Assembly: GCA_002350105.1 (NCBI GenBank)
Contig: DEDT01000041.1
Span: 4,408 to 68,407, forward strand
Reading direction: 5' to 3'
From: Selenomonadaceae bacterium UBA2897
GTDB taxonomy: Bacteria; Bacillota; Negativicutes; Selenomonadales; Selenomonadaceae
DNA length: 64,000 nt
Shown here: positions 11,345-64,000 of the stretch, in pieces
Layout of the letters: each line of letters opens with the position of its first letter
Numbering within the stretch: the first letter of the stretch is position 1
Notes under the pieces: model-generated
What the model saw: the letters and a program-made list of their open reading frames with translations, nothing else
Told to the model about the DNA's origin: nothing
The model's database searches: none
Translations under genes and position numbers: made by a program

Positions 11345-11358
11345 AAAGCTTTTCCTCT

Positions 11359-13362: not shown

Positions 13363-13373
<11 letters not shown>
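12486..13373 (-). CDS. ftsX: Cell-division ABC transporter permease FtsX
   Basis: Start trimmed to ATG 13373 (11-nt overlap with ftsE). 4-TM FtsX topology with a large first extracellular loop. Confidence 0.9.
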
Positions 13374-14049
<676 letters not shown>

Positions 14050-14105
14050 GAAAGCTTTTCACCCCTTGCAAATTACACATCTTCCATTGTAGCATAGGCG
14101 GCTGA

Positions 14106-14143
14106 AAGAAAAAAGAGACCGGACGCTGACGCGCCCGGTCTCC
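14106..14143 (-). terminator. Rho-independent terminator after csaB
   Basis: Minus strand stem ggagaccgg / ccggtctc followed by TTTTTTC. Confidence 0.75.
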
Positions 14144-14158
14144 GGGATGATTCCTTCT

Positions 14159-15256: not shown

Positions 15257-15265
15257 GAGTAAAGA

Positions 15266-17329
15266 TTACGCTCCTTTTTTCTCCTCTGCCGTCGCGCGCG
15301 CCATGACCAGCTGCCACAACTGCACGAGCACCATGCAGGCCGCACCGATGAGGCCGCCCAGAACGATGCCGCCGATACCGCGCATCATCGACATATAGAC
15401 CGGCGTGCGCATATGCGCGAACGTCTCCACCATGGAGCCCTGGCCGATCGTGGCCACGAGCACCAGCGCGAAGAACACCATGGTCGGCCACTTGCGCCAG
15501 AAAGTCAGCGCCGCCAGCATGAAGGCCGGATGGCCGATCAAGAGCTCCTTCGAACGCGGACGCGCGTAGAAGGCCTGCTCCAGCATCGCTCGGAAATGCA
15601 GCTCGGCCTGCGGCACAGGCATGCCCGAAGTATGGCCGCTGCGCGCGACGAAGACAACGCCCGCAAGAGCCACGAAGGCGAGACCGATCAGAGTCTTGAT
15701 CTTCACGGGCATATCGAGCAACAGCTTCAGCTGCTCCTTGACGCCGGAGGTATTATCCATTTTCCCGTCAAACACATCGAAGCGCTGCAGGAAACCAATG
15801 GCCACCAGGATGAGCGGCAGCACGAACGTCAGCTTGATGCCGCGGAAAATCTGCGCTTCCAGCAGATACTCCACGTCGGCCAGCGAGCCGGAAATATAGG
15901 CCGCACCGAAATAGGACAGCAGGCCCGTGCCCAACAGAGCCACGAAAGCCGTCACCACGAGCCGCGGGAACGAGATATGCAGGCTGCCCTGGTGCTTGCG
16001 CACGCAGTCGAGCTGCGCGAGCACGGCGATGGCCGGGAATACATTCGCGCTCGCGAGCGCCGCCAGCACGCGGATCTTCGTACCGTTGCCCATGAGCATC
16101 GGCACGGCGGCACAGAGGCCGAACACAAGCCAGAGGATGAACTGCATGCGGCGGTTTGCGTTGAGTCGCGGTATGACCAGCGACAGATAGAGCACGACCG
16201 CTGCCGCTACGCCCAGCATCACGATGGCGCGCAGGGTTTTCTGCGGATAGAAAGCGGCAAAACGGTCGGCCGGGCCCACGGTGAATCCGTGTGCAATGAG
16301 CTGATCATGCGTGTCACGGAAATACTTCATATTCGTTTCCATGAGCGTCATGTTCGGCGACGGCTTGTCGTAGGAACGCAACAGGTCGATGCGGATATTG
16401 CGCTCCTGGTCGGTATTCGACCAGCGCTCCACCAGCGTATCGATCTTGAGCTTCGGCTGCTCATCCTTCGGCACGGAATAGAGACGCGCCACCCGATCGT
16501 AGCCGAGTCGCTTGGTCACGACATCCAAACCCGTCTGCGGATAGAACTGCAGTTGCGTGACCGCTTCGATGAGACCGAGGGTGATGTTGCGCTCCTTCAG
16601 CTCGTCGATGGTCGGCTGCATGGTCTTCGGCGCACCGAGCATTTCCTTGCCCGAGAAAACGATCTCCGAAATCTTGAAGCCATCGAGGCGCTGGAATACC
16701 GCATGCACGTCGTCTGGCGTGCACTCTGCATAGTTGCTCGGCCGTGCAAGCACGTAGAAGCCCGCATCATTGACCGTCTGCATCTCGTCCGTCGGCATGC
16801 CGAGATTCATCTTGATGAAATCGTTATAGAAGGCTTTGACGGCCAGGACTTCCTCGCCGCCCACGTCGAGCTTCTCGACACGATCCTCGCCCAGACGGCG
16901 CACGATGTCCTCTTTCAGCTCGCGCCAGGTCTGGGGATCGTGGCCCGTCACGTAGACCTCCGTGCCCACGATCTTGCCGCTGGCCGCGAGCTCGCGCCAT
17001 GCGGGATCTGTCAGCGCACCTTTATGGTAGGCAGCCAGCAGATCACTGCCCGCAACGGCTGAGGCCTTGCCATTGGCATTGAGCTTGCGGAACGTCGTCT
17101 CATAGACGGCCAGCGAAGTGATGCCGGCCTCTTTCGCCTGCTGCAGCACATAGCTCTCGGGCAGGCCCTCGCGCTGCGCCAGCGCCTGCAGGTCCTCATA
17201 GTCGATGGCCATGTCCACCTGACGGTTGGCCTGCTCGACCTGATGGCGCTGCCAGCTGATGACGAGCGCCGCCACGAGTCCGATGATGATCATGCCGATC
17301 AGGAACTTATTGTACTTGAATCTCTGCAT
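15266..17329 (-). CDS. Large polytopic membrane protein of unknown function (DUF5693-like, csaB-associated)
   Basis: N-terminal TM, ~330-aa extracytoplasmic domain, then ~10 TM helices. Only a 9-nt gap to csaB. The family assignment is from recollection only. Confidence 0.55.
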   Translation of the reverse strand: MQRFKYNKFLIGMIIIGLVAALVISWQRHQVEQANRQVDMAIDYEDLQALAQREGLPESYVLQQAKEAGITSLAVYETTFRKLNANGKASAVAGSDLLAAYHKGALTDPAWRELAASGKIVGTEVYVTGHDPQTWRELKEDIVRRLGEDRVEKLDVGGEEVLAVKAFYNDFIKMNLGMPTDEMQTVNDAGFYVLARPSNYAECTPDDVHAVFQRLDGFKISEIVFSGKEMLGAPKTMQPTIDELKERNITLGLIEAVTQLQFYPQTGLDVVTKRLGYDRVARLYSVPKDEQPKLKIDTLVERWSNTDQERNIRIDLLRSYDKPSPNMTLMETNMKYFRDTHDQLIAHGFTVGPADRFAAFYPQKTLRAIVMLGVAAAVVLYLSLVIPRLNANRRMQFILWLVFGLCAAVPMLMGNGTKIRVLAALASANVFPAIAVLAQLDCVRKHQGSLHISFPRLVVTAFVALLGTGLLSYFGAAYISGSLADVEYLLEAQIFRGIKLTFVLPLILVAIGFLQRFDVFDGKMDNTSGVKEQLKLLLDMPVKIKTLIGLAFVALAGVVFVARSGHTSGMPVPQAELHFRAMLEQAFYARPRSKELLIGHPAFMLAALTFWRKWPTMVFFALVLVATIGQGSMVETFAHMRTPVYMSMMRGIGGIVLGGLIGAACMVLVQLWQLVMARATAEEKKGA

Positions 17330-32538: not shown

Positions 32539-34260
32539 TCACTCCGCGCAATAACGACGCCAGACCTCTTTGTAAGCAGACTCCAATTCCTTCATATACT
32601 GCTTCTCGTTCATCAATGCCGACTTGCGCAGCTGCTCGCGCAGGGCACCGTGATAGGCGTTGATGAGCTTCGGCGATTTGCCCAGTTGCACGGCGCGGCG
32701 CAGGTAGTTGAGGTCATTCTCGACCAGCAGTTCCTGCACGCCCGCGTTCTTCAGGATGGAGGCGCCGAAGCGCGCACCATGGGTGCGGCCGCGGATGCTG
32801 ATGACGGGCACGCCCATGCATAGCGCTTCGCATGTGGTGAGGCCGCCGTTGTAGGGTGCCGTGTCCAGCGCCACGTCGATATCGCGGTACTGCTCCAGAT
32901 AGTCGGGGCTGTAGGGGCGCAGCTCCACGCGCTGCACATCGAAGTTCAGCCGTTGCAGGCGCTTTTTCACAATGTCGCAGCCCGAGGGCACGCTGCATAC
33001 CTTGCCCTTGATTACGAGCTTCGCATCCTTCACGCTATCGAGGATACCGCGCCAGAGGAGCAGCATCTCATCCGTGACCTTGTTGAAATCATTGAAGCTG
33101 CCGAAGGTGACGAAACCGTTGCGCACGGAGGGCGCCTCGGGCAGAAGGTCCGGCAGGCGGCGCACGACGCGCGGCGAATAGCAGAGATGGCTGTGTGGCA
33201 GGCGGATGATCTGCTCCGTGAAGGCGCTGGCCGCGATCTCGTCGCCCGTCGGCAGGCAGGTCTCATCCGATAGGAAGTAGTCGATGGCGGGCAGGCCCGT
33301 CGTATTCATGTAGCCAATGCCCGCGATCTGCACGGGTGCCGGCTTATAGGCCATGATGGGCAGGCAGCTGCCCTGCGTATGGCCGGAAAGGTCGACGAGG
33401 ATATCGATCTTGTCCTCATCGATGATGCGCGCGGCCGTGCGCGGCGAGCGCCCCTGCAGATCGCGCCAGTTCACGTGGTTCTTGTGCAGTCGCCTGGTCA
33501 CATCGTCCTCGCGGCCCGTGGCGTAGACGTACACCTGAAAGTTCTTCCGGTCGAACGCGGCCAGAAGCGGCGTCACGAAGGAAGCCACGGCGTGCTCGCG
33601 CCAGTCCGGCGAAAGGTAGCCGATGCGCAGCCGCTTGTCGGGAATCTTGCGCGCGGCGGCGTGCTGGTACGGCTTCACGGGGCAGATGGCTGCCCAATCC
33701 TCGGCCCGCTGACGGCTCTCCGCCGGGGCGAGCTCACGGTAATTATCCATGAAAAGCGCCTTGCTGGTGAATATCGCCCGCTGCTCCGGCGTCACCGCGA
33801 ACCGCGCGCAGGTCCTGAGCGCTTCTGCCGCCTGCTCAGGACGCCCTGCGAGATAGAGCATGTCCGCCATCCAGCCCTGCGCCTTGCGCACGACATTCTG
33901 CAGCGTCGCGTAATAGGCATCGGAACTGTCGAGCGCCTTCAGCTTGCGCATCGCCTCCTCCACCACGTCGTGCAGCCCCGGCAGCGCCGCATCGAGCCGG
34001 AACTCGCGCGCGGCTACGCCCGCGCTCACAAGGCGCGCGCGCAGATGCTGCGGCTCGGACTGCAGCACGCCGTCCGCCAGCGAAGCCGCCTCGTCGAGGT
34101 CGCCACCGTAGAGCGCGGCCTCGGCCATGACGGCCGCGCCCTCCAGCTTGCTGCGGGCGTCGCTCTCCCAAAGCTCACGCGCACAGGCCCGCATGCCCTG
34201 CGGGTCTCCGTCGGCCGCAAATTTATCGGCCAGATTCAGCCAGTTGACCGTTTCGGACAT
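32539..34260 (-). CDS. TPR-repeat O-GlcNAc-transferase-like glycosyltransferase (GT41, SPINDLY/OGT family)
   Basis: N-terminal TPR-like helices. C-terminal half has GT41 hallmarks (RIGYLSPDWREHAV ... DILVDLSGHT ... FGSFNDFNKV ... LDTAPYNGGLTTCEALCMGVPV). Confidence 0.8.
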   Translation of the reverse strand: MSETVNWLNLADKFAADGDPQGMRACARELWESDARSKLEGAAVMAEAALYGGDLDEAASLADGVLQSEPQHLRARLVSAGVAAREFRLDAALPGLHDVVEEAMRKLKALDSSDAYYATLQNVVRKAQGWMADMLYLAGRPEQAAEALRTCARFAVTPEQRAIFTSKALFMDNYRELAPAESRQRAEDWAAICPVKPYQHAAARKIPDKRLRIGYLSPDWREHAVASFVTPLLAAFDRKNFQVYVYATGREDDVTRRLHKNHVNWRDLQGRSPRTAARIIDEDKIDILVDLSGHTQGSCLPIMAYKPAPVQIAGIGYMNTTGLPAIDYFLSDETCLPTGDEIAASAFTEQIIRLPHSHLCYSPRVVRRLPDLLPEAPSVRNGFVTFGSFNDFNKVTDEMLLLWRGILDSVKDAKLVIKGKVCSVPSGCDIVKKRLQRLNFDVQRVELRPYSPDYLEQYRDIDVALDTAPYNGGLTTCEALCMGVPVISIRGRTHGARFGASILKNAGVQELLVENDLNYLRRAVQLGKSPKLINAYHGALREQLRKSALMNEKQYMKELESAYKEVWRRYCAE

Positions 34261-34263
34261 AGC

Positions 34264-34962
34264 TCACACCTCCGGATGGAGTTCCTGCCCATACTCACGC
34301 AGGAATACTTTCTGATAGCCCTTGTACTCTCTTGCCAGCGGTTTTTCCTTCGGGCAATGGATGCACCAGAAATCCTCGCTCTGGTTCGGCACGACCACAC
34401 GGCGGCCGCGCCGCTGCATCTCCTTGCACATCGAGGTGTCGTAGAGATGCCAGCCCGTGAAAAGATCCTCACGCCAGGGGATATCATACTGCGTCGCGAG
34501 GAAAAGCCCATCGACGGCCTCGACTTCCTGATAGGCCCCTGCTGGCTCCATGCAGTGCGAATCCACGACGCACTCCGGCTCGCAGGCGTGCAGCACCCGG
34601 CCGTAGGTGCGCATGCCGTCCCACCAGATGCCGCTCTCAGGCAGGCAGCGGCAGCCGATGACGCCCACGAGGCCGATCCCCGGGTCGGCAAAGAGTCGCA
34701 GCAGGTCGGCCACGAGATTCTTATTGACCACCAGCGTATCCTGATGCAGGTAGACCTTGTACTTCGCATCCGTCTGCCGGCAACCTGCGTTATAGCCCGC
34801 ACACATCGAGGTCGCACCGCGCACGGGGATGTACTCTGCCGTAAAGCCCGCGGGTAGCGCGAGGCTCGCCAGATAGCGGCGGCATTCGCTGTACCAGTCT
34901 TCCTGATTCACGCAGGTGATGAAAGCTACTTTTTGTGGATTCAGCTGTTTTGCTTCAGGCAT
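34264..34962 (-). CDS. Glycosyltransferase-like family protein (Glyco_tranf_2_5 type)
   Basis: Start trimmed to ATG 34962 (ATGCCTGA overlap with the upstream stop). Motifs VAFITCVNQEDWYSEC ... AKYKVYLHQDTLV. Confidence 0.7.
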   Translation of the reverse strand: MPEAKQLNPQKVAFITCVNQEDWYSECRRYLASLALPAGFTAEYIPVRGATSMCAGYNAGCRQTDAKYKVYLHQDTLVVNKNLVADLLRLFADPGIGLVGVIGCRCLPESGIWWDGMRTYGRVLHACEPECVVDSHCMEPAGAYQEVEAVDGLFLATQYDIPWREDLFTGWHLYDTSMCKEMQRRGRRVVVPNQSEDFWCIHCPKEKPLAREYKGYQKVFLREYGQELHPEV

Positions 34963-35872
34963 CGTCTTCGCCTCCCTGCGCGAGCTCTCCCGTGGGATGC
35001 GCTGCGATTTCCGCCGCCCGGATAGCCGCGATTTCCTCCCCATGCGTCCCCGCATACTGCTCCAGATGCTGGAAGAAGCGCGTAATATGGAACACGGTCT
35101 CATGGATGAACGCCGCCACGTAGTCGGGGAAAAGTCCCAGCCGCGCGTAAAACGCCCAAAAGGCCGCACATTGCCGTTCCGTATCGACATCATACTCGAT
35201 GCGGTGCAGCAGCCAGGCGAGTTCCTGCCTGTCTTCCTTCGTATACATCGACTTCAGGAGCGCCAGTTCCGGCATGGAACGGTCGGCCTTCACCAGCCAG
35301 AATTCCGTCTCCAGATCATCATGCAGATTCTCGAAGCCCGCCGCCTCCAGCTTCGCAAGCAGGCCCTCCGGCGCCTTGCGGCGCTGCGGCCGGAGGTGCA
35401 CGTCTTTATAGTACGAGGCATAGAGCAGTTTCTCGAACTCCGGCTTGGCATAGAGGCGCGCAGCCACATGATAGTAGTGCCCCTCCATGATATTCCGGAT
35501 TTCCGACCAGTGCCGCAAATTGCGGAAGCTCGTGAGCCAGCTGCCTGTCTCCTTGAGATAGGTCGAGAAGCCGGCCGCGATATCCTGCGGGTTGCCCGCC
35601 TGCTCCAGCGTGAGGTCCGAGATGATGTAGTCGAAGGATGCACGCGGATATGGAAGCGGCTCGCTGAGATAGTCGCAGACCGTGAGCTCCGCCCCCGTCG
35701 CCGCATAGGCGGACAGGCGGTCTTTGTCAGCGGCTGCACCATAGAGCTCAGCGATGGGGAACATCTGCCGCAACCGGGGCAGGTAATGGAGATCCTCCAC
35801 GACGAGCACGCGCAGCGGCAGCGCGGCGGGCTGCAGGAACTGCAGCAGGGCCGGCTTGATTTTCTCAGACAT
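34955..35872 (-). CDS. Hypothetical protein, methyltransferase-like fold with degenerate SAM motif
   Basis: VLVVEDLHY replaces the usual ExGxGxG motif. FDYIISDLTLEQAGNPQD ... LKETGSWL resembles the post-II/III motifs of class I methyltransferases. The assignment is weak. Confidence 0.4.
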   Translation of the reverse strand: MSEKIKPALLQFLQPAALPLRVLVVEDLHYLPRLRQMFPIAELYGAAADKDRLSAYAATGAELTVCDYLSEPLPYPRASFDYIISDLTLEQAGNPQDIAAGFSTYLKETGSWLTSFRNLRHWSEIRNIMEGHYYHVAARLYAKPEFEKLLYASYYKDVHLRPQRRKAPEGLLAKLEAAGFENLHDDLETEFWLVKADRSMPELALLKSMYTKEDRQELAWLLHRIEYDVDTERQCAAFWAFYARLGLFPDYVAAFIHETVFHITRFFQHLEQYAGTHGEEIAAIRAAEIAAHPTGELAQGGEDDA

Positions 35873-43825: not shown

Positions 43826-44704
43826 TCAAAACATGAAATTGAGCAAATTGCCTACCGAGGCATATGTCGTCATGCCCTGAAGGGCCTTACCTGTGTAGAG
43901 CGACGCGACCTCCATCTCGCCGCCGATCATCTGCTTCATCGAGGGAAACAGCTTGCTGCGCTGATGGTTGGCCTGCTCGATGTGCGTCTCCGCCTTGCCG
44001 GCGAGGCCGCTGCGTCCCAGCGTATACTCGGTGGCATCGCTGTTCTCCGTCAGGGCCTTGGCCAGCTTGTCCTCATCGAGCGACAGCGCACCGGTCTTCG
44101 TATCAACCGTAATGCCCACCGTGCTGTACTGGCCAGCGTGATAGGTCGTATCCGCGAAGTTGCTGCTCAGTGCCTTCATGCGGTCACTGACCTCCGCGTT
44201 GTCGCTGGTGAACTGCAGCGCATCGTTGTAGGCCGAGACGAGATTGCTGACGTTCTTGATGGCCGCCTTGAGCCCACTGCTGTAGGTCTTCGTGCCATCG
44301 GCATTAGTCGTGATATCGTCTTTGCCGAAGTCGAAATTCATATACTTGACGGTGCTCGCCGCATCTTTCAGATCCGACATCGTGCTGTCGTACTCCGCAT
44401 AAAATGCCTTGTTCGTCGAGGTATAGGAACTCATGAGGCCCTGGATACCCGACTTGATGCTCGTGAGCGTCTTCATGTCCTCCGACGCCTGCGTAGCCGC
44501 ATTCTTCCAGCTGTTGACGATAGCCTCCGAGCTGGACTTCGCGTTGCTGCTGATGCTCGAAAGCGACGTCGAACTCGTGGCAGACGATGTGCTCTTCGCC
44601 GTACTGGTACTGCTCGTACTCGAGCCGAACAGTGACAGGCCATTATTCTGCGCCATCTTGTACATGGCGTAGGTGTTGTTGGCCATTGCCGAAATCGTAG
44701 CCAT
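43826..44704 (-). CDS. Ser/Thr-rich protein with a FliD (flagellar cap)-like central/C-terminal region
   Basis: Start trimmed to ATG 44704 behind GGGAGG. No signal peptide. STSSTSTAKSTSSATSSTSLSSISS tract. LVSAYNDALQF and VGITVDTKTGALSLDEDKLAKAL resemble FliD motifs. The assignment is by eye only. Confidence 0.4.
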   Translation of the reverse strand: MATISAMANNTYAMYKMAQNNGLSLFGSSTSSTSTAKSTSSATSSTSLSSISSNAKSSSEAIVNSWKNAATQASEDMKTLTSIKSGIQGLMSSYTSTNKAFYAEYDSTMSDLKDAASTVKYMNFDFGKDDITTNADGTKTYSSGLKAAIKNVSNLVSAYNDALQFTSDNAEVSDRMKALSSNFADTTYHAGQYSTVGITVDTKTGALSLDEDKLAKALTENSDATEYTLGRSGLAGKAETHIEQANHQRSKLFPSMKQMIGGEMEVASLYTGKALQGMTTYASVGNLLNFMF

Positions 44705-44838
44705 AATATTTCCTCCCTTCCCTGGTAATGCAGGATCCACTCTTCCACCTATATTATCGTCTATTTTCCCTTAAAAATAAAGCCCCCCGCGCAAATAATC
44801 CGCCCGCTCGCCACCGCGCAAAAACTGTAACGAAAATT

Positions 44839-55819: not shown

Positions 55820-55853
55820 AACAAAAAAATCCTGTTCCCCAAAGGAACAGGAT
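55820..55853 (-). terminator. Rho-independent terminator closing the exported-protein operon
   Basis: Perfect 10-bp stem atcctgttcc / ggaacaggat followed by T7 on the minus strand. Confidence 0.85.
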
Positions 55854-55879: not shown

Positions 55880-56857
55880 TCAGCGTACAAATACGACGCT
55901 CGTGTTATCGAGGAAGTGCGTAGCACCGTTCTCGATGAGCACGCGGTTCGCATCTGCCGTGCTCAGCACCGGATTGCCATTGTGGTTGTCCAGCGAAACA
56001 GCCTTGACCACCAGCGGGTTGCTGCCAGCACGGGCAGCCTGGCCCATATCCGACGTGTAGGATGCCATGCCCTGCTTGACGATCAGGTCATAATTGAGGT
56101 TCTTGTACCCATAGATGGGGTTGCCCTCAGCGTTCTTGATGACCGGGCTCATGACCGGACGCAGGCCGAGGCCGCGGCAGTCAACGATGAGGCCCGTGTA
56201 GTTGCCAACCGCCTGGCCAACGGGAGCCGGAGCAGCCGAGCTGGCAGGAACGGATGGGGCAGCAGGCGTAGCGGCCGACTGCTGCGGAGCAGCCGGAGTC
56301 TGAGACTGCTGCGGGGTCGGGGTATTGACCTTTACCTCAACATTAACCGACGTCGAGGGAGCTGGTGCCGGAGCTACCGAAGCAACGGGCTGCGGGAACG
56401 GCTCCTTTACCGTCGGCTGCGGCAGAACGGCTTTCGCGATAGACGAAGTCACGCCGAACATCGGCACCTCCATCGTGACCGTGTAAGCGCCATCCTTGTC
56501 AAAGGACTCGCTGACGACGCGAGCGCCCTTAATCGTAGCAGACATATGCGCCTTCACGACATCACTCGTCGTCATGTTCATCTCGACCGTCGTATCAGAA
56601 TCGATCTGAACACCTTTTACCGTCTCAGCGAGCTGACGCCAGCCATCGACGATAGCAGCACGACGCGCCAGAATCTTGCCCTGAGCCAGATTGACGGCCT
56701 GCGGCGGCATAACGCCCATACCCACAGCGCGAACGACACCCTTCTCGTAGTCGATCTCGCCCGTGCCGTTACCCATGGCAAAGGCACTGGCTGCTGACAT
56801 GACGACCATGGCCGCAGCGACCATAGCCGTCGTCAGCAATCTCACATACTTATTCAT
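55880..56857 (-). CDS. Exported protein: LPP20/FlgP-like N-domain, Pro/Ala/Gln linker, unknown C-domain
   Basis: Start trimmed to ATG 56857 (6 nt after AAGGAGGA). Signal peptide ...SAASAFA|M. LPP20-like AQGKILARRAAIVDGWRQLAETVKGVQIDSDT. Confidence 0.7.
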   Translation of the reverse strand: MNKYVRLLTTAMVAAAMVVMSAASAFAMGNGTGEIDYEKGVVRAVGMGVMPPQAVNLAQGKILARRAAIVDGWRQLAETVKGVQIDSDTTVEMNMTTSDVVKAHMSATIKGARVVSESFDKDGAYTVTMEVPMFGVTSSIAKAVLPQPTVKEPFPQPVASVAPAPAPSTSVNVEVKVNTPTPQQSQTPAAPQQSAATPAAPSVPASSAAPAPVGQAVGNYTGLIVDCRGLGLRPVMSPVIKNAEGNPIYGYKNLNYDLIVKQGMASYTSDMGQAARAGSNPLVVKAVSLDNHNGNPVLSTADANRVLIENGATHFLDNTSVVFVR

Positions 56858-56903
56858 GTCCAATCCTCCTTAATCAGAACACTTCGTTGTGAAGCACAAC
56901 TTT

Positions 56904-56932
56904 ATTATAAAGACGTGTCTCATTTTTGACAA
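56904..56932 (-). promoter_or_regulatory. Candidate internal promoter in front of the last gene of the exported-protein cluster
   Basis: Minus strand reads TTGTCA-17 nt-TATAAT in the 125-nt gap. Confidence 0.45.
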
Positions 56933-56982
56933 GTCTTATGTCCTATTTTTCTAAAAAGAACAACCCGGAATCGTCTGTCCCA

Positions 56983-57843
56983 TCAGTGCTGCTGCCAATA
57001 GGCAGCCACCTTATCCGCCAAGGCCCGTGCGGAGTTCAAGCCCGCCTTGTCGAGCACGCGCTGCCCCGTCAGCCGTTTCTCCTCCAGCACGAGCTGGTAG
57101 GAGTCCCGGTACTCGCCGATGACGCGGCGCCCGTTATAAATATCCACTGCGCGCACGATAACATCTCCCTGACAGGTATGCCCGGTCGCATCATCCGTTA
57201 CCGGACGGATACTGACCTCGCCGATGATCGCCAGCGGCACATCCTGATGGTCAGTCTCAATTCTTTGTGAGAGGCTCTGACAGAAGGTTTCAAACGGCTG
57301 ACGGTTATCCATGATGGAACGGCTCAAATCTGCCTGATCGGCCATCTGAAATCCCAGACGCTCGAAAACATCCTTATAGACCGTCGCGAGCTGGGACTGA
57401 CTGCTCTGGAAATGCGCCGCATCCATCGCCATGCCATTGACGCGAATCAGGCAGTAAAAAGCCTTATCATCATGGCGCTCTGTCTGTGCCGCATTCACCT
57501 GGCCGATACGTGCTGTCAGTTTGTCCATGTCGACCGTGACTTTGCTGTAAAGGAGCAGTTTGCTCCCATCCTTTTGCTGATTGAAGACCTGGGGCTGCGC
57601 CGTGTACTGCTCATACTCCCCCATGAGCTGACGAAACAGCGGATTTTGCGGTGTTATCAGGTAGCGAAGTGCCTTGAACATCGCTTTCTTCCGTGCATTC
57701 GCGATCGCTCCCTGCTCACTGCCCTGCGAGGAAACCCCGCAAACCGTCATCGTCGTTGGGGCCGCCTGTACGGCAGCCATCGGCAGAAAGAAGAGTGAGC
57801 AGAACGCGGCTGCCAGCAGAATACGCCCCAACCCCCGTATCAT
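56983..57843 (-). CDS. Exported protein of unknown function (LPP20-like start, CsgG/TolB-N-like signature near C-terminus)
   Basis: Start trimmed to ATG 57843 (7 nt after GGAGGTG). Signal peptide ...PMAAVQA|A. GAIANARKKAMFKALRYL. VIVRAVDIYNGRRVIG. Confidence 0.65.
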   Translation of the reverse strand: MIRGLGRILLAAAFCSLFFLPMAAVQAAPTTMTVCGVSSQGSEQGAIANARKKAMFKALRYLITPQNPLFRQLMGEYEQYTAQPQVFNQQKDGSKLLLYSKVTVDMDKLTARIGQVNAAQTERHDDKAFYCLIRVNGMAMDAAHFQSSQSQLATVYKDVFERLGFQMADQADLSRSIMDNRQPFETFCQSLSQRIETDHQDVPLAIIGEVSIRPVTDDATGHTCQGDVIVRAVDIYNGRRVIGEYRDSYQLVLEEKRLTGQRVLDKAGLNSARALADKVAAYWQQH

Positions 57844-57867
57844 AAGCAACCACCTCCAGACAAGGCA

Positions 57868-59019
57868 TCAAAATGAAAAGATCATCTTGCCTCCGGCAGA
57901 TTCACCGGGTACCGCGTTTGGCAGTCTCTGCTGAATGGCATTCGAGAAATCGCCCGGCGTGCTATACCCCATAGCATCGACAAAAATCTGCAACGCTCCC
58001 GTGCTGGAGAATCCCATACGGACGATCCGGCAGGTCATCCCCTGCAAAGCCTGCACGATCGCATTTTTCTGATTGACACGATCCGTGATGTTCTGGAAGA
58101 CAAGTAACGTCTTGATATGACGTACCCCACCGCGCGTATCGCGCTGCTCTGTCAGGAGTGCCTTCTGCGAAAGGGATTCGACCGCCTTGCGTGCCGCCAG
58201 ATTCTGCGCTTTCAGAACCGCCGCATTCGCATCGTTACCCACGGCAGTAAAATAATCCGCAAAGGAATTTACCGCATTATTGTCAAGCCCCACCATGCTG
58301 AAGGAAGCCTGCACAACAGCTGAAACCCCCTGTCGCCCCGGGTTAATCTGAATGGTGGAGAACACGCCATAGAGCACGGCATGGGCATCGCCGCGCTCTT
58401 CCATAGACGAGGCGATGGCGCGAATCTGTGTGGCCGACAGTGGCTGGCCACTGCGAACCTGGTTCTGGACATAGTCGTTTAACCGGGAGCTTTCCCCTAC
58501 TGCAAAGCCGCCATCTTCCAGCCTGCTGCGTACGTAGGTAGAGACATCATCCTGACTGCCAAAGATACCCGTCTTACCTGCCAGTGCCACGAGAACACCG
58601 TGGCGGTTAGACTGATCACTCAGTGCCGAGATGCGATCCTTCAGTTTTCCCATCTCGGTCTCAATCGCGTGCGTGCTGACCTCCGCATCGATTGACAGAA
58701 TGTACATCCCGTCCTCCTGATGCTCATCAAAGACCCGGTTCAGCTTCACATAGCCGTTGGAATTCGACATGATGCGGTCGGTCAGCACGACGTTCTTGTC
58801 CACCAGCGTCGTGCCCGAAACCTGCACGCCGACCCTGGCCTCGACCAGCGTACGCTCAGCATCCTGAATCGCCTGCTCCCTAGCACGCACCGTATCACCA
58901 TCTGTGATAACCGCGCGCCCCTGCTGAATCTCCGCCTGGCAGACCGATGCCTGCCCCCAAAAACTGCACGCCGCTACCGCGACGGCTGCCAAGGCCAGTC
59001 GTATATCGGTTCTCCTCAT
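57868..59019 (-). CDS. Exported (possibly lipo-)protein, FlgT-like domain order (LPP20-like N-domain plus TolB-N/CsgG-like middle)
   Basis: SD GAGGAGAAGG. Possible lipobox AVAAC. AREQAIQDAERTLVEARVGVQVSGTT ... GMYILSIDAEV. Middle region HGVLVALAGKTG ... LEDGGFAV. Confidence 0.65.
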   Translation of the reverse strand: MRRTDIRLALAAVAVAACSFWGQASVCQAEIQQGRAVITDGDTVRAREQAIQDAERTLVEARVGVQVSGTTLVDKNVVLTDRIMSNSNGYVKLNRVFDEHQEDGMYILSIDAEVSTHAIETEMGKLKDRISALSDQSNRHGVLVALAGKTGIFGSQDDVSTYVRSRLEDGGFAVGESSRLNDYVQNQVRSGQPLSATQIRAIASSMEERGDAHAVLYGVFSTIQINPGRQGVSAVVQASFSMVGLDNNAVNSFADYFTAVGNDANAAVLKAQNLAARKAVESLSQKALLTEQRDTRGGVRHIKTLLVFQNITDRVNQKNAIVQALQGMTCRIVRMGFSSTGALQIFVDAMGYSTPGDFSNAIQQRLPNAVPGESAGGKMIFSF

Positions 59020-59034
59020 ATGACAACCTTCTCC

Positions 59035-60273
59035 TCACTTTTTGCGCTTCTGCTGTGCCAGTTCATTAGACAAATCATAAAAGAGTGACGTAAAGGCATA
59101 ATACTCTGTCTGCTGCTTCTTCGCCAGACGATCCTGCTCTGACAGAGCTTTATCTGCCTCCGGCACATCGATCAGGATCAGATGCTTCGTCAGTGGCTCC
59201 GCCGGTGCCGCTGCCTGTCCATTTGCATCGATTTCCTGCTGCGTGAGCCATGCCTTGTACATATGATGCTCCGTGGCCGCCTTGCCCGGATCCATGACTC
59301 CGTCATTAACCCCATACACATCCAGCGTAATCTTATTTGTCGGCTGTTCCCAGGACAATTCCTGCTCACCCAACGGTGTATTGATCCGCATGCGGTTGAT
59401 GTTTTGGTCCAATGCGTCATTACCGAACACGCTCGGCAGGACGACCTGATTATGTGCCTGCTGGAAAGCCGCAGTATACACGCTCGCGAGCAGCTGTTGC
59501 AGCTTCTGTCCTTTCTCTCCTGGGAAAATTTCATTCTTCGCGCGCGGGGAACGGAATGTCACACCGGTAACCTGATACGTCCTAAAAGTATTATCGGAAT
59601 TTCCGCCCGGCTTTAAAGCCTTCTCGACAAATTTATGAAAATCCTCGACCTTTGCCCGGAATACCATCTGCGTCGCAATAGCCTGCTCCGTAATATCCTC
59701 ATAGATGGCACGCTTGGTCTCGATACTGACCGGCTGCCCAATGGACTGCTTCGGTTCAAGTGTCCTGGCACCCATGGGGAGAATCGAAAGGAGGCGCATG
59801 CTCTTCTTTCCATCCGCTGCCATCACGTCTTCGCTTTCACTTACCATAGTCGTGCGGCTGACCAATGCCAGATTCAGGCCGCTGACGACCGTAGAAGCAT
59901 AATAGTCCACGCCCTGAGCGCGGGCATGGACATCAAAAGCCCGGTCGAGCGTAACAATCGGCATCAGCTCCAGCGAAAAATCGTTGGCAAAACTATGATC
60001 CGAACCCGTACTGTCCTGCAAGACCAACTGAAAGGGCAGCTCTCCATTCCCCTGCATACGGAGCAACTGATTCTTGATTTTCTGGTAAACGGCTAATTGC
60101 ACATCGCCACTCAATAATTCCTGACCGTCCGCTGCGCCCGGCATAGTAGCAAGAAAAGGTGCCAATGTAACCGGGACAAGCGATTGTTCCGCCGCCCGTG
60201 CTACACCAGCACCCTCCAGCATCCATACAGCACAGCATAAAACCGTCAGGCAGTAGGTGAGTAATCTCTTCAC
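59035..60273 (-). CDS. Exported protein of unknown function (412 aa)
   Basis: GTG start 7 nt after AGGAGGA. Signal peptide ...GAGVARA|AEQ. I recognise no motifs. Confidence 0.65.
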   Translation of the reverse strand: MKRLLTYCLTVLCCAVWMLEGAGVARAAEQSLVPVTLAPFLATMPGAADGQELLSGDVQLAVYQKIKNQLLRMQGNGELPFQLVLQDSTGSDHSFANDFSLELMPIVTLDRAFDVHARAQGVDYYASTVVSGLNLALVSRTTMVSESEDVMAADGKKSMRLLSILPMGARTLEPKQSIGQPVSIETKRAIYEDITEQAIATQMVFRAKVEDFHKFVEKALKPGGNSDNTFRTYQVTGVTFRSPRAKNEIFPGEKGQKLQQLLASVYTAAFQQAHNQVVLPSVFGNDALDQNINRMRINTPLGEQELSWEQPTNKITLDVYGVNDGVMDPGKAATEHHMYKAWLTQQEIDANGQAAAPAEPLTKHLILIDVPEADKALSEQDRLAKKQQTEYYAFTSLFYDLSNELAQQKRKK

Positions 60274-60321
60274 GATATTTCCTCCTGCCTTTGCACCAGC
60301 CTATACCATGACAGGCCTGAA

Positions 60322-61128
60322 TTACTGCGCAATCCCCATTTTCTGATCGAAGGCCTGCTCCTCAGCCTTGGAGACCTTGCCCGCATCCTTGAACTTCTTG
60401 TCCGCCGCCTGCTGCAGCTGCGCACGGGCTTTGGATGCCTGTTTCTGTGCATTGAGCAGAGACTGCGCCGCCTGCGCATAGGACATCAGTTCTTTTACGG
60501 TACTGACCTTGTCGCCCAGGCTGCTCGGATTAGCCAATGCCTTGGTGGACTGGCCGATAATCATCGAGGCATCACGCAGGGCCAGCGCGTTGTAGAACGC
60601 TGCACGGTTGCGGGAGACTTTGGCCTCATGCTGCAACGCTTTCGTCTGCTCCGTGATATCGGACTCCTTCATCTGATTGATCTGGTCCAGCATCATCTGC
60701 GTCTGATCCTTCGTCTCAATCGATCCAGACAAAGAAGTCTTCATGCCCTCCAGCGCCTTCGGCGTCAAGGAGCCCACATTGCCTAAGAGTGCCTGCTTCT
60801 GTTTCAGGTCAGCATTCCACTGGGCAAGGTTCGGATCCTTCACCAGTGTATGCAGCTGCACCGCCGAGTACTGCTCACAGTAAGCAGCGCGTACCAGATT
60901 GAGCAGCATATCCTGTTTCTTATTGGACATGGCTCCGAGATCCACATTGAGCTGCTGACCTATCGCCTGCTTAAGCGCTCCACCAAGATTGCCGAGCCCG
61001 AACGCCTCAGCAGACTGCATCCCCAATGTCGATGTCTGCGGCGACGTAATCCCTGCAGGATTCACGAACTGGCCACCGATCCCCAGCATGACGGCCATAG
61101 CAACGCTTGCCATTCCTTTTCTCTGCAT
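60322..61128 (-). CDS. Exported all-helical Gln/Lys/Ala-rich protein of unknown function
   Basis: SD AAAGGAAAGGA. Hydrophobic N-terminus with ...QSAEA|FG. The remainder looks like long amphipathic helices. Confidence 0.6.
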   Translation of the reverse strand: MQRKGMASVAMAVMLGIGGQFVNPAGITSPQTSTLGMQSAEAFGLGNLGGALKQAIGQQLNVDLGAMSNKKQDMLLNLVRAAYCEQYSAVQLHTLVKDPNLAQWNADLKQKQALLGNVGSLTPKALEGMKTSLSGSIETKDQTQMMLDQINQMKESDITEQTKALQHEAKVSRNRAAFYNALALRDASMIIGQSTKALANPSSLGDKVSTVKELMSYAQAAQSLLNAQKQASKARAQLQQAADKKFKDAGKVSKAEEQAFDQKMGIAQ

Positions 61129-61272
61129 AAAAATCCTTTCCTTTCTCTAAAATCCACCCTATAAAAATCTAATCCTCCTTTATTTTACTCCCGTTCAACA
61201 CAGCGCGTCAAGACACATGTCCCATTTTGCAACATATAACCATGCTTCAAAAAGAGACCACACCGTACATGT

Positions 61273-61988
61273 TCAACGTTTGCCAAACCACTGTGCCCAA
61301 TAATGGTGGCTGTTATCATCGGCTTTGTACACATAGGCTAATCCCATAACATTGTAATCTGGATAAAGGATATTGGCCTTGTGCGTAGGAGAAAGCATCC
61401 AGTTCGCCACTACCGTAACAGGCGAATTCGCTCCCCGCTGAAGATTTTCTCCCAGCTCAGCAAACTTACCGGCCTGACCGGATGGCACAATCGTATTGAA
61501 ATCACTGCCATCCGGACGCTGATGTGAATAATATTTCGCCGCTTCCTGCACGCGGAGCTCTGCATAATGATTGAGCTCGTCGTCCAAACGCAACGGTTTC
61601 AGACCCGCTTTTTCCCGCTCCTGGTTCACCAGATCCAGCACATCCTGGCGATAATATTTCTGATCAACGGCATTCTCGTCCGAGACCGCACCCAGAATAT
61701 GGAAAATCAGGCGATAAACCAGCGGCTCTTGTCCGGGATCCTGAAAGACGGCCCTGACCTCCACATCGCCCGGCTCCTTGAAGCGCAGGCGGTACTCCCC
61801 GTTCTTATAGCGGAATTCCTCTGCTACACGGGGGTTACTGACGATAAAGCGCACATTCTCCCCCGGATAGGCCCATACCTTTCCCGTCGTGCGAGTATAC
61901 TCACCCTTGAACTGCTCCGCCGCAAAACACTGCCAACGTTCAGCAGGCACAGACACACAACCAGAACCATCATAAACCATCTGCGCAT
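61273..61988 (-). CDS. CAP/SCP (YkwD-like) domain exported protein, interrupted by a 1-nt frameshift between signal peptide and mature part
   Basis: CAP motifs ... NQEREKAGLKPLRLDDEL ... HSHQRPDG ... SPTHKANIL ... The SD GGAGGA (61996-62001) serves ATG 61988, which opens a signal peptide in the +1 frame. The main frame runs 61273..61980. Confidence 0.7.
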
Positions 61989-62050
61989 AATATCGTCCTC
62001 CTCTCTTTTTGGGTTCTTATCCCCATCGTCCCTAAATGATTCCCCACCCA

Positions 62051-63307
62051 TTAATCCACTTTGACGCCAATGCTCCGCTCAACGTCGCGATAGAAATCAT
62101 TGAATACACTGCGCAGGGCATTGCCGAATCGTTCGGTATCATCAGCCGCATAATGATGCTGAAATATCGTCTGGCCTGTTGAGGCATCGACCAGGCGCAA
62201 TGAAGCTCCTACCTTATACCAAAAGGTATAATAGCCATAATAATCGTGGACGGATGTCTTATAATATTCCCGCTTGCCCTCATGGGAATTGCCATCCGCA
62301 TCGGTCCAGGTGAACTTTTTCGTTTCATCCAGATACGTACTGGTATCAGCATAGGGCGGATGCCACGTCTGTCCGCGCTGGTAGGTATCCACCGTACCGG
62401 TAACGTAATATTGCCCTGCATTCGGCGTATAATCTACCTTCACGCCTTTCATCCTGTCACCAGCCGCATCCTTGTAGGCATAGTAAATCGTCTTGATCGA
62501 GTATTCATCACGCCCCGCAGATGCCGGGAGGTTCAGGTTCCGAAAGCCAAGCGTCGGTGCGCCTGCTGCTGCCTCCTGCGGCTTATCGCGACGCAGGCGG
62601 CTCCAGTCCCCCGTGAAATTCTTGAAAATCTGATTGAGTGCGTGCTCCGTACTCCGCTCGTAATCCCGGTAATAGTCGATCAGCGTCAGCGTCTTGTTTC
62701 CCTCACGATCCAAAAGGGAAAAATCCATATCGAGCATGCGCAGGTTACTATCATGTGCGGGAATCAGATGACTCTCGTGCCACGAATGATAATTCAGCTT
62801 ATCCCGGTTGCCTTTCGGCCCATTTTTCTCATCATAATACGTCTCGATCTTCACCGTTGTCCATGTCGCAGGAGAATGATCGACGCGCACCTGATCCCAG
62901 CGGACATGCGGCAGCAGATATCCATCCGCTGCCGTCGCATCATAGACAGCCGCCGCCCGCTCCTTTTCCGTCGCAAAATGATCGCGCAGATGATCATACT
63001 TCGGGTTATCCCGCAGGATATGCTTCTTCTCCTCCAGCATAGGAGAGAACCCCATCCAATTCACACCCTTGCCGCGTTTGTTCAGGCGATCTAAAAGCAT
63101 CTTGTTATATTTCGGTGCAGTCTCATAATTGCCATCCTGCTCCTGAAGGTAACGGATGGGATAAACCACTACTTTCTTGTACTGGTATGGGAGGATCTCC
63201 GCATTCTCATCCATCCAGATATTCCCCTCTGCCGATGCCTGACCACTCCATGCCGTCAGGCACAGCGCTGCCCCTAACAGAAATGCGCCTATTTTCCCGC
63301 GCTTCAT
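62051..63307 (-). CDS. Exported Tyr/Trp/Asp-rich protein of unknown function with a CsgG-like C-terminal signature
   Basis: Start trimmed to ATG 63307 (MKRGKIGAFLLGAALCLTAWSGQASA|EG). C-terminal GASLRLVDASTGQTIF. Confidence 0.65.
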   Translation of the reverse strand: MKRGKIGAFLLGAALCLTAWSGQASAEGNIWMDENAEILPYQYKKVVVYPIRYLQEQDGNYETAPKYNKMLLDRLNKRGKGVNWMGFSPMLEEKKHILRDNPKYDHLRDHFATEKERAAAVYDATAADGYLLPHVRWDQVRVDHSPATWTTVKIETYYDEKNGPKGNRDKLNYHSWHESHLIPAHDSNLRMLDMDFSLLDREGNKTLTLIDYYRDYERSTEHALNQIFKNFTGDWSRLRRDKPQEAAAGAPTLGFRNLNLPASAGRDEYSIKTIYYAYKDAAGDRMKGVKVDYTPNAGQYYVTGTVDTYQRGQTWHPPYADTSTYLDETKKFTWTDADGNSHEGKREYYKTSVHDYYGYYTFWYKVGASLRLVDASTGQTIFQHHYAADDTERFGNALRSVFNDFYRDVERSIGVKVD

Positions 63308-63338
63308 CCCATCATCCCCCGTCTTTACCTTCCAATCT

Positions 63339-63947
63339 TCAGGCCGCCTTCTTGAATTTAGCCGCCAAATTCGTCGCTGCAATGCTAAGTGCTTTCTGTA
63401 CCGCATCATCTTCGCCACTATCATTTCTGGTTAAAATGGCGTTATACTTCAACTCGCTTTTGCGCCGCGAATCCGCCGTGGCGATAAATACGACCCTGCC
63501 TGTATGTGCATCGACAACGCGCATGCTCAGCTCCAGGTCAACCGTCTTATCCTTGCCTTTGAGCCCCAGCGCTCCACTCTGCGCCTTGATGCTGCTGATG
63601 TTCGTCAAATACCCATAGATGAGAAAATCCGCCTTTTTTTGCAACGCCGGATCAATCCTGCCATTCCCCAAATCATTGAACAGCCGAATCTCTTCCATGC
63701 GATGCTGTGTCGTTGCATCCGAAAGATCCTTGACCTCAAACGGAAAGGCCGGATCATTTAACTCAGTATACAAGACCCCAACCGGTATTCCGAGCATTTC
63801 ATCCTGCTCGATGTTCACATTTGTATCTGACACACGGCTCTGAAAGCCGACAATCGCCACGACCGGTTTCGCCGCATAGGCTGGTGTGCTGGCCACCAGA
63901 CAGAGCCAGCCCAAAAGCACCAGCAGGCCAAAGCATGCTTTCTTCAT
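63339..63947 (-). CDS. Exported CsgG/FlgO/LpoB-fold-like protein
   Basis: Start trimmed to ATG 63947 (6 nt after GAGGTG; ATGA overlap with an upstream reading frame that leaves the window). Signal peptide ...STPAYA|A. KPVVAIVGFQS ... ADFLIYGYLTNI ... LSMRVVDAHTGRVVF. Confidence 0.7.
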   Translation of the reverse strand: MKKACFGLLVLLGWLCLVASTPAYAAKPVVAIVGFQSRVSDTNVNIEQDEMLGIPVGVLYTELNDPAFPFEVKDLSDATTQHRMEEIRLFNDLGNGRIDPALQKKADFLIYGYLTNISSIKAQSGALGLKGKDKTVDLELSMRVVDAHTGRVVFIATADSRRKSELKYNAILTRNDSGEDDAVQKALSIAATNLAAKFKKAA

Positions 63948-64000
63948 ATGTCGCACCTCACGATTTCACCGCTGGAAACCCATTCTGGCAAAAATCCTTT

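Follow-up and report, generated by a model that had tools for sequence, protein, structure and literature searches.

At the high-coordinate end of a 64,000-nucleotide stretch of contig DEDT01000041.1 from the gut/rumen bacterium Selenomonadaceae bacterium UBA2897 (the whole stretch is referred to below as the window) lies a minus-strand cluster of genes for exported proteins built from domains of the FlgP/LPP20/FlgT_N type and of the CsgG/FlgT-M/PelC type. This composition had been proposed in a first-pass annotation made from the letters of the DNA, and is supported here by profile and fold matches. The cluster comprises at least ten genes rather than eight, arranged as two separately conserved modules and one CAP-domain gene: (TPR)-U1-U2-G1-G2 make up module A and G4-G5-G6-G7-G8 module B, and in the window the CAP gene, G3, lies between them. 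As our preferred but tentative reading, held with a little less than even confidence, the locus would specify a periplasmic scaffold without lipid anchors, in the form of a ring or lattice beneath the outer membrane and independent of the flagellum. In agreement with the annotation, profile, structure and literature searches found no characterised match to the system. The features of the cluster are, in window coordinates and in the direction of transcription:

63958-64000, minus strand: 3′ end of U2, where the frame translates to KDFCQNGFPAVKS and a stop codon; U2 is a 276-amino-acid exported protein of module A
63339-63947, minus strand: G1, 202 amino acids, exported, CsgG/LpoB-like alpha/beta domain, module A
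62051-63307, minus strand: G2, 418 amino acids, exported, tandem CsgG/PelC/FlgT-M-like fold, signature protein of module A
61273-61980, minus strand: G3, open reading frame (ORF) of 235 amino acids with the signal-peptide ATG at 61988; CAP/SCP domain and an extra N-terminal domain of about 90 amino acids; frameshifted
61924-61927, minus strand: T4 homopolymer (T5 in sister contigs), a 1-nucleotide deletion separating the G3 signal peptide from the CAP body
61182-61211, minus strand: promoter-like TTGACG-18-TAAAAT (10/12) in the 144-nucleotide G3-G4 gap, at the boundary between module A plus CAP and module B; consensus match only
60322-61128, minus strand: G4, 268 amino acids, mostly helical, Gln/Lys/Ala-rich, first gene of module B
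59035-60273, minus strand: G5, 412 amino acids, exported, orphan fold, module B
57868-59019, minus strand: G6, 383 amino acids, exported, FlgT_N/FlgP-like SHS2 domain, U1-like middle and small C-terminal domain
56983-57843, minus strand: G7, 286 amino acids, exported, weakly U1/G6-like, module B
56904-56932, minus strand: promoter-like TTGTCA-17-TATAAT (11/12) in the 125-nucleotide G7-G8 gap; consensus match only
55880-56857, minus strand: G8, 325 amino acids, exported, FlgP/LPP20 domain, linker and Tp0624-D2-like domain, last gene of the cluster
55829-55853, minus strand: intrinsic terminator closing the cluster, with an 11-bp stem, a 3-nucleotide loop and T7

An exact-sequence look-up of G1 returned the same locus on many public contigs (locus versions are cited here by L numbers), with two further genes, U1 and U2, upstream of G1; both are complete in the same-species contigs L002-L006 and L012. 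The eight-gene unit of the first-pass annotation is therefore not borne out, as U1 and U2 precede G1 beyond base 64000. The U2 gene occupies L002 1270-2100, its last 14 codons being window positions 63958-63999, and it ends with ...GFPAVKS and a stop at 63958-63960, 10 nucleotides before the G1 ATG. A longer locus had been suspected from an ATGA overlap at 63947; the locus does continue upstream, but the overlap involves a spurious frame and not a real gene. Upstream of U1, the sister lineages L001 and L029 have a gene for an exported TPR protein with a possible lipobox, LAGSC. The TPR gene is absent from this position in the window's strain, for which most public contigs end there: the 350 nucleotides upstream of U1 (L002 1-360, about 2.1-2.4 kb past window base 64000) contain a terminator-like hairpin and a TATAAT and, on the opposite strand, the start of a divergent ORF, MSRTRRHFTAKFKSDL, which resembles a transposase by eye and probably explains the assembly breaks. 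The 4.7-kb contig L012 (CAZFFA010000215.1), whose U1, U2, G1 and G2 products are 100% identical to those of the window's strain, is filed under “uncultured Jutongia sp.”; Jutongia is a genus of Lachnospiraceae, and the contig is probably mis-binned. Past the other end of the cluster, L001 (18280-20609) and L029 (11648-12491) carry extra SHS2-type proteins downstream of G8, first a 367-amino-acid protein with an FlgT_N-like N-terminus and a coiled-coil-looking remainder, and then a 737-amino-acid protein with an N-terminus 39% identical to it; the window has at the equivalent position a MarR regulator and an efflux operon (ABC-2 permease and membrane-fusion protein).

When 185,579 species genomes were scanned with a U1 profile, 17 loci were found. 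All full U1 matches are in Selenomonadaceae (Mitsuokella multacida DSM 20544, M. jalaludinii, Selenomonas, and metagenome-assembled genomes, or MAGs, labelled “Veillonellaceae”), the order U1-U2-G1-G2 is kept in at least 12 of these loci, among them both Mitsuokella species and about ten MAGs, and G1 adjoins U2 and G2 in 12 or more Selenomonadaceae loci. In Mitsuokella, U1 is replaced by two genes, for a 288-amino-acid U1 paralogue and a 222-amino-acid CsgG/HfaB protein. Module B was recovered in a metagenome scan with a G8 profile, which found 80 rumen and gut loci: the G4-G8 block is kept at 27-43% identity in the rumen contigs L032, L046, L050 and L068, and partly in L040, L048 and L097. 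Orthologues of G4 stand at the head of module B in the former four loci (19-35% identity), with those of G5 (26-31%) and G7 (30-39%) likewise in the same positions as in the window. Module A is followed by its own G8 paralogue in L018, L034, L042 and L073, and CAP genes recur beside G8 homologues in L065, L097 and L105-107. On the rumen contig Ga0256406_1004716, which comprises L032 and L042, the order is B-G8-TPR-A-G8, as compared with A-CAP-B-G8 in the window; since both modules are found on one contig in reversed order, they travel together, which argues for a functional link between them. Conservation as a block in related genomes was thus found, in the form of two syntenic blocks across Selenomonadaceae. 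The notion that G3-G7 are strain-specific, suggested by a G6 homologue search that returned 3 clusters, was overturned by the module B blocks of the G8-anchored scan. A metagenome scan with G5 gave no match, and such a scan depends on exact heptapeptide patterns; most metagenome contigs are short, so that architectures with G8 alone may be incomplete.

Comparison of the window's strain (L002) with L001 gave ratios of non-synonymous to synonymous substitution rates (dN/dS) of 0.05-0.21 for all ten genes, which are therefore functional coding genes under purifying selection. The synonymous divergence itself is a mosaic, with dS near 0 in U2 and G1, 0.16-0.20 in U1 and G2, and 0.7-1.4 in G3-G8, suggesting either that the U2-G1 segment recombined recently or that the MAG contig is chimeric. 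The lower G+C content that had been remarked upon is real (53.3% over 56983-64000 versus 58.3% in the rest of the window), and third-position G+C (GC3) is 0.56-0.70 in the cluster genes versus about 0.75-0.85 in the rest of the window. The accessory island deduced from it is not supported, however, because the genes lowest in G+C, G1 and G2, belong to the core conserved across the family, and the cluster is not a strain-level island.

Two other gene arrangements came up alongside these loci. In Deinococcota-like MAGs (L025 6881-8934, L026 7326-9430, L027 143-2276), a gene for a CsgG-like lipoprotein with a canonical lipobox (FVGC, LTGC) is directly followed by a full-length G8 homologue of about 25% identity, the pair standing beside ORFs that resemble rph and rdgB by eye; such a pair may be an ancestral two-gene module of two diderm Terrabacteria lineages. 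In other Selenomonadaceae (L021 9941-14449, L022 698-5185) we found a different six-gene cluster of CsgG-like exported paralogues, several of which open with CsgG/LpoB-type HPTVGVMNFEN or VAIVSVGF strands, adjoining ORFs that resemble alaS and hisZ/hisG by eye, so that multi-paralogue CsgG-like operons seem to be a Selenomonadaceae trait.

Within the window, the basic description of the unit held up well. Eight co-directional minus-strand ORFs are seen in the ORF list between 63947 and 55880, the intergenic gaps measure 15-144 nucleotides, GGAGG-like Shine-Dalgarno sequences precede all starts, and the terminator, read in the direction of transcription, runs from 55853 to 55829. The 56904-56932 site is a possible internal promoter for G8. 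Pfam and NCBIfam scans of the cluster proteins revealed no ATPase and no polytopic membrane protein, CAP being the sole enzyme domain. A signal peptide had been assigned to every product; it is in frame for seven, in which a charged n-region is followed by a hydrophobic core and then by an AxA-type site, but out of frame in the CAP gene G3. Rfam scans, which covered the locus as well as the upstream regions in L002, L029 and L032, gave chance-level matches only and no cis-regulatory RNA, and a phage or defence origin was rejected, there being no PHROG matches. All products are entered in NCBI as “hypothetical protein” except U1, which is called “FlgT N-terminal domain-containing” or “CsgG/HfaB family”. 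The host, a member of the Selenomonadaceae, is a diderm Firmicute, as had been supposed; the window encodes a TonB-dependent receptor and a TolC-type OEP, and also SecA, FtsEX and CsaB.

The module A proteins U1, G1 and G2 show the relationship to CsgG. U1 (301 amino acids) scores 52.7 bits against Pfam CsgG (cut-off 20.8; profile positions 5-182 of 210) and 32.1 bits against FlgT_N (PF16548), above its 28.8 cut-off, matches LpoB at E=2e-5, and aligns with Campylobacter jejuni FlgP (9hmf_C) at E=7e-6; its Mitsuokella homologue reaches E=3e-12 for LpoB, and Mitsuokella P0064 56.3 bits for CsgG. G1 stays below threshold in Pfam (CsgG E=0.006, 16.4 bits against a cut-off of 20.8; LpoB E=0.03) and yielded nothing significant in a PDB sequence-profile search; it was assigned to the CsgG family because it aligns with the CsgG-like domain of U1 at 95.6% in hhalign, of which it is, by this profile comparison, a paralogue. 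G2 had neither a Pfam nor a PDB sequence-profile match, and its family, which is without a Pfam model, numbers 105 of 1.84e9 protein representatives at E<=1e-3. Its AlphaFold2 model, built with 37 homologues, has a predicted local distance difference test score (pLDDT) of 87.2 and a predicted template modelling score (pTM) of 0.78, and consists of two tandem alpha/beta domains, each with four strands of 16-17 residues, and long polar beta-hairpins. The best Foldseek matches of this model were, first, the Vibrio LPHT-ring chain 8Z5N_0, and then CsgG, FlgT (3w1e), HpaA, PelC and GNA1162, with TM-scores of 0.45-0.67 per target (0.57-0.67 for PelC, 0.59 for GNA1162) at 6-15% identity. The mature N-terminus of G2, GNIWMD (about 63220-63240), is invariant or nearly so among the 37 homologues, a degree of conservation not usual at a mature N-terminus, which points to a peptide for docking or strand insertion. 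U2 belongs to no known family, aligns with U1 at 48% in hhalign, and gave nothing significant in the PDB sequence-profile search. Its orthologues share invariant TNExGRH ... HMDAIxxGH residues (H87, H103, D105, H111), possibly a metal-binding or catalytic motif, in which case the cluster would hold an enzyme after all.

The presence of a Pfam CsgG member raises the question of CsgG-type (type VIII-like) secretion, in which a channel in the outer membrane, built by U1 and G1 and perhaps also G2, would export co-encoded substrates such as G4, G8 or the CAP protein to the surface. Besides passing the Pfam threshold, U1 can be aligned with Escherichia coli CsgG through the region of the transmembrane hairpin TM1, the hairpins of both U1 and G1 are strongly conserved, the GNIWMD peptide of G2 recalls, by analogy only, a CsgF-like plug or adaptor peptide, and the TPR protein upstream of U1 is placed as are the PelB TPRs with PelC. 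However, neither U1 (signal peptide ending ...LGQAAFA|QEV) nor G1 (...TPAYA|AKP) contains a [LVI][ASTVI][GAS]C lipobox. Compared with E. coli CsgG, the U1 counterpart of TM1 has 6 residues fewer, and a sequence heuristic places R, R, E, K and R across its two faces; by the same heuristic, the TM2 equivalent has no clean alternation, and every long G2 strand but one has a negative mean hydropathy on both faces. A membrane-inserted CsgG-type barrel in U1 or G2 is thus unlikely, the hairpins being short and charged in the former and polar in the latter. Moreover, scans of the cluster proteins revealed no amyloid-type repeat protein, CsgE/F homologue or polysaccharide synthesis gene. Throughout the cluster, a canonical lipobox is lacking in the products, the possible exceptions being the TPR protein and G6, in which the suspected VAAC is present as AVAACS. 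This scarcity agrees with the reported absence of LolA/LolB in Negativicutes and with the report that no acylated outer-membrane proteins were detected in Veillonella (PMC5007114, PMC5491611), and the Lol pathway, which CsgG-type lipoproteins need, is among the components reported missing (PMC5007114). Taken together, these observations weaken the secretion option raised in the first-pass annotation, and we regard it as rather improbable.

The relationship to FlgP is borne chiefly by G8, which scores 32.1 bits for Pfam LPP20 (PF02169; cut-off 25.9) and matches the C. jejuni FlgP chain 9hmf_C at E=3.4e-15 (other FlgP chains, E=0.004-0.17). Residues 40-130 of G8 align with FlgP 69-158 with a 1-residue gap, across the segment following the SHS2 helix, the part in which the beta-hairpin insert of FlgP serves as the ring-forming element (PMC12222027). 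G6 likewise matches 9hmf_C (E=2e-7), its residues 32-118 aligning with FlgP 73-163 with one 4-residue gap located before the helix, so that in both proteins the segment after the helix is, by alignment only, equal in length to that of FlgP. For FlgT_N, G6 itself is just under threshold (27.1 bits against 28.8, E=6e-6), and all six of its orthologues match, the best at E=7e-8. Its profile aligns with that of U1 at 97.9% over U1 1-280 and G6 6-329; G6 may therefore be described as a U1-like two-domain protein with an extra C-terminal domain. The resemblance to FlgT in size and domain order that had been noted for it holds for the N-terminal domain and the U1-like middle, but G6 has no FlgT_M or FlgT_C match at E<=1 and retrieved no FlgT chain in the PDB profile search; its AlphaFold2 model, made from a mixed alignment of 7 sequences, had a pLDDT of 47 and was left out of the fold search. 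The recurrence of LPP20-like and CsgG-like modules thus stands for G8 (LPP20), G6 (FlgT_N), G1 and G2, but only weakly for G7 (signal peptide ending ...AVQA|APT), which aligns with U1 at 39% and with G6 at 30% in hhalign and has no Pfam or PDB match.

The two remaining module B proteins are orphans. G5 (signal peptide ending ...VARA|AEQ) showed no Pfam, PDB or hhalign relation, and G4 no Pfam, PDB or PHROG relative. Because the hydrophobic segment of G4 lies about 20 residues ahead of the AEA|FG site, its N-terminus may serve as a signal anchor and not as a signal peptide that is cleaved. G4 was also compared with a FliD_C-like ORF elsewhere in the window, and no resemblance was seen.

Those FlgP and FlgT_N matches of G8, U1 and G6, together with the Vibrio LPHT-ring chain at the top of the Foldseek matches of G2, would be accounted for if the locus encoded a flagellar motor accessory, that is, an analogue, around the LP-rings of selenomonads, of the H-ring made by FlgO, FlgP and FlgT in Vibrio or of the basal disk made by FlgP in Campylobacter. 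A YjfB_motility gene that precedes module A by about 3 kb in L009/L010 and the FliD_C-like ORF, 12 kb from the cluster, point the same way. The latter (window 43826-44740, minus strand; 304 amino acids; FliD_C, the flagellar cap, E=3e-7) stands alone beside pyruvate kinase; together with a pair of GT41 and GT2_5 glycosyltransferases encoded at 32539-35193, also on the minus strand, it hints that the window organism is or was flagellated, and no link to the cluster was found. Nevertheless, module A is present in M. multacida and M. jalaludinii, and M. multacida is described in the literature as non-motile (PMC13518439), which makes an obligatory flagellar role unlikely. No flagellar neighbours occur in the window or at any locus version examined (L001-L029 and the metagenome loci), a pair of G8-like and CsgG-like genes is found in Deinococcota-like MAGs, and the window proteins include no FlgT_M, FlgT_C or FlgO match and no lipid anchors. 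Moreover, the fold family to which these proteins belong is broad and mostly non-flagellar, including as it does CsgG, PelC, LpoB, Lpp20 and HpaA. The flagellar option, which the first-pass annotation had also listed, is thus weakened in spite of the FlgP/FlgT_N homology, and we consider it unlikely.

Possible connections to peptidoglycan are offered by G3 and G8. The CAP domain of G3 (PF00188) scores 70.2 bits against a cut-off of 21.1 (E=3.6e-19). Against the DalA equivalog NF052539 it reaches 36.2 bits (cut-off 200; E=5e-9; positions 41-165 of 169), and against the YkwD subfamily TIGR02909 84.4 bits (cut-off 171; E=6e-24). The signal peptide of G3, MRRWFMMVLVVCLCLLNVGSV, and the CAP body are read in different frames: in a DNA alignment the window and L002 have the T4 tract, while L003, L004 and L029 have T5, and the intact 238-amino-acid form is found in L003-L006 and L029. 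The T4 tract could represent an assembly error, a pseudogene or phase variation. In G8, the signal peptide (...SAASAFA|MGNG, with no Cys near the cleavage site) and the FlgP-like domain are followed by a 72-residue linker consisting to 87.5% of P/A/Q/S/T/V, and by a C-terminal domain (185-300) homologous to residues 132-260 of Treponema pallidum Tp0624, i.e. its D2 domain (5jir_B, E=1.2e-9), the N-terminal domain being weakly related to D1 (i-E=14). A link of both proteins to peptidoglycan is plausible by analogy, since the DalA model aligns with the G3 CAP domain and DalA binds peptidoglycan (PMC10470522), and since Tp0624 is an OmpA-domain envelope protein.

The same similarities, along with the LpoB matches of U1 and its Mitsuokella homologue, would also be expected from a loose set of peptidoglycan-synthesis or division regulators, in which LpoB-like activators and a DalA-like CAP scaffold (DalA being a divisome-associated peptidoglycan binder) act singly or in small complexes. 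The genomic surroundings offer some encouragement, in that module A lies a few kb from an ftsEX / PcsB-like M23 / CtpB cluster in L009, and G8 is near an FtsZ-like ORF, recognised by eye, in Mitsuokella-like contigs. The block in L009 (1397-6532, upstream of module A), which is a Selenomonas MAG locus, corresponds to a csaB (polysaccharide pyruvyl transferase) - ftsE - ftsX - PcsB-like M23 - CtpB-like S41 block in the window (10184-17329, minus strand), which lies about 40 kb from the cluster and has a DUF5693 gene beside csaB, for which no match was seen in L009. It is hard, however, to explain at least ten paralogous genes in two rigid syntenic blocks as independent regulators; the LpoB and DalA matches are at the level of domains only, as the DalA score of 36 bits versus 200 illustrates, and no version of the locus has a linked gene for a penicillin-binding protein or an L,D-transpeptidase. 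A set of separate regulators therefore seems improbable to us.

Returning to the periplasmic scaffold, we envisage that Sec-exported envelope proteins free of lipid anchors would co-assemble in the periplasm beneath the outer membrane from two kinds of building block: SHS2 domains of the FlgP/FlgT_N/LPP20 type in U1, G6, G8 and perhaps G7, and alpha/beta domains of the CsgG/PelC/FlgT-M/LpoB type in U1, G1, G2 (two copies), G6 and perhaps U2 and G7. In characterised relatives, both folds assemble into homo-oligomeric rings on the inner side of the outer membrane. Module A, with the TPR protein, would make the core ring or rings; in module B, G4 would provide a helical, possibly inner-membrane-anchored part and the others further ring subunits. 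G8, with its ring domain, Pro/Ala/Gln-rich spacer and Tp0624-D2-like domain, and the CAP protein G3 would most probably provide the connection to peptidoglycan or to some other layer of the envelope. Stated more broadly, and with correspondingly greater reserve, Selenomonadaceae, being diderm Firmicutes apparently incapable of sending lipoproteins to the outer membrane, might build a hitherto unseen, flagellum-independent periplasmic ring or disk from soluble, lipid-free descendants of the FlgP/FlgT/CsgG/PelC folds, encoded in two co-inherited modules and tied to the cell wall by the CAP protein and G8.

The data show directly the gene content, synteny, purifying selection, export signals and domain homologies of the cluster. 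Several points weigh against the scaffold proposal. We infer co-assembly, ring geometry, oligomerisation, a location beneath the outer membrane and a peptidoglycan link from homology and synteny, and a fold does not dictate a ring, as the same folds also occur in monomeric regulators (LpoB) and adhesins (HpaA, Lpp20). For G4 and G5 no relatives of known fold were detected, and the match of U2 to U1 is weak. In the Mitsuokella-like human-gut contigs L044 and L085, G8 stands alone among housekeeping-looking genes, and it may work independently. The window organism may well be flagellated, given its FliD_C-like ORF, and module B may have a lineage-specific flagellar use. Finally, the hairpin argument against a pore is a heuristic one, and the G6 model is of low confidence.

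How one- and two-membrane bacteria are related is a debate in which the envelope of diderm Firmicutes has a central place, and the machinery associated with their outer membrane is poorly known, because, to our knowledge, Lpp, Pal and the Lol pathway are missing from them. We know of no case in Proteobacteria in which the CsgG, PelC, FlgT, FlgP and Lpp20 folds are other than outer-membrane lipoprotein rings. The locus shows that selenomonads abundant in gut and rumen have retained these folds, increased their copy number and removed their lipid anchors. If the assembly is as proposed, it would show how ring scaffolds can attach under an outer membrane without lipoproteins, and would represent a non-flagellar relative of the basal-disk and H-ring proteins, bearing on how those flagellar add-ons were recruited. 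Five protein families without a curated model (G2, U2, G4, G5 and G7) are defined here, G2 with a confident tandem CsgG-like model. In the searchable literature pairing CsgG, FlgP or LPP20 with Negativicutes or Selenomonas we found no description of the cluster, and the V. parvula outer-membrane proteome paper (PMC5491611) mentions no CsgG, LPP20, FlgT or curli protein; we rate as new a multi-paralogue, lipid-free, non-flagellar genomic system of ring-protein folds confined to Selenomonadaceae.

Comparison with known systems shows both how far the similarities extend and where they stop. With the Vibrio H-ring proteins FlgT, FlgP and FlgO and with C. jejuni FlgP (PDB 3W1E, 8Z5N, 9HMF), the cluster shares the SHS2 domains of G8, U1 and G6, with at most one short gap around the post-helix segment, the TolB-N/CsgG-like domains that form the middle of FlgT, and the encoding of several such proteins together, all of them exported. 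FlgP and FlgO, however, are lipoproteins, whereas the cluster products are without a lipoprotein signal, the window proteins gave no FlgT_M, FlgT_C or FlgO profile match, and the cluster is not part of a flagellar gene cluster, its module A occurring in Mitsuokella, of which M. multacida is described as non-motile; it also has more paralogues and unrelated partners (U2, G4, G5, the CAP and TPR proteins). With CsgG (PF03783; PDB 4UV3, 6L7A), U1 and its Mitsuokella homologue share a Pfam-level relationship, G1 being a paralogue, the G2 model superposes, and an xRxVD..TG.vv strand motif is held in common. The differences lie in the missing lipobox, the shorter and charged TM1 hairpin, the lack of csgA/B/E/F-like genes in the Pfam/NCBIfam scan, the additional N-terminal SHS2 domain of U1 and the tandem duplication in G2.

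The ring lipoproteins of the same fold (PelC, GNA1162/DUF799, HpaA, LptE and DUF330) gave the best per-target TM-scores for the G2 model, and the TPR protein with which the cluster opens in L001 and L029 is reminiscent of PelB, whose TPRs partner PelC. PelC, in contrast, is a dodecameric lipoprotein ring encoded in the pel operon, and the cluster, similar at the fold level only, comes without pel, polysaccharide or LPS-transport genes and without a lipid anchor. With respect to T. pallidum Tp0624 (5JIR), G8 shares the D2-like C-terminal domain and a weakly D1-like N-terminal domain, but it lacks the OmpA-like D3, has a long low-complexity linker, and its N-terminal domain is clearly FlgP/LPP20-like; D1-D2 units without an OmpA domain are present in about 50 proteins from various bacteria (Parker et al., the 5JIR paper). 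The CAP domain of G3 aligns with nearly the whole of the models for DalA, the divisome-associated, peptidoglycan-binding outer-membrane lipoprotein of Rhodobacter sphaeroides, and for Bacillus YkwD, although with scores far below the cut-offs, and G3 differs in its extra N-terminal beta-rich domain, in having an ordinary signal peptide instead of a lipobox, and in the frameshift. Since the defining lipid anchors and the partner genes (flagellar, csgEF/AB, pel) are absent, as are the transmembrane hairpins of CsgG and the M and C domains of FlgT, the locus is a member of none of the H-ring, basal-disk, PelC or CsgG systems, yet it resembles the FlgT/FlgP/FlgO H-ring, the basal disk, and the PelC and CsgG rings alike.

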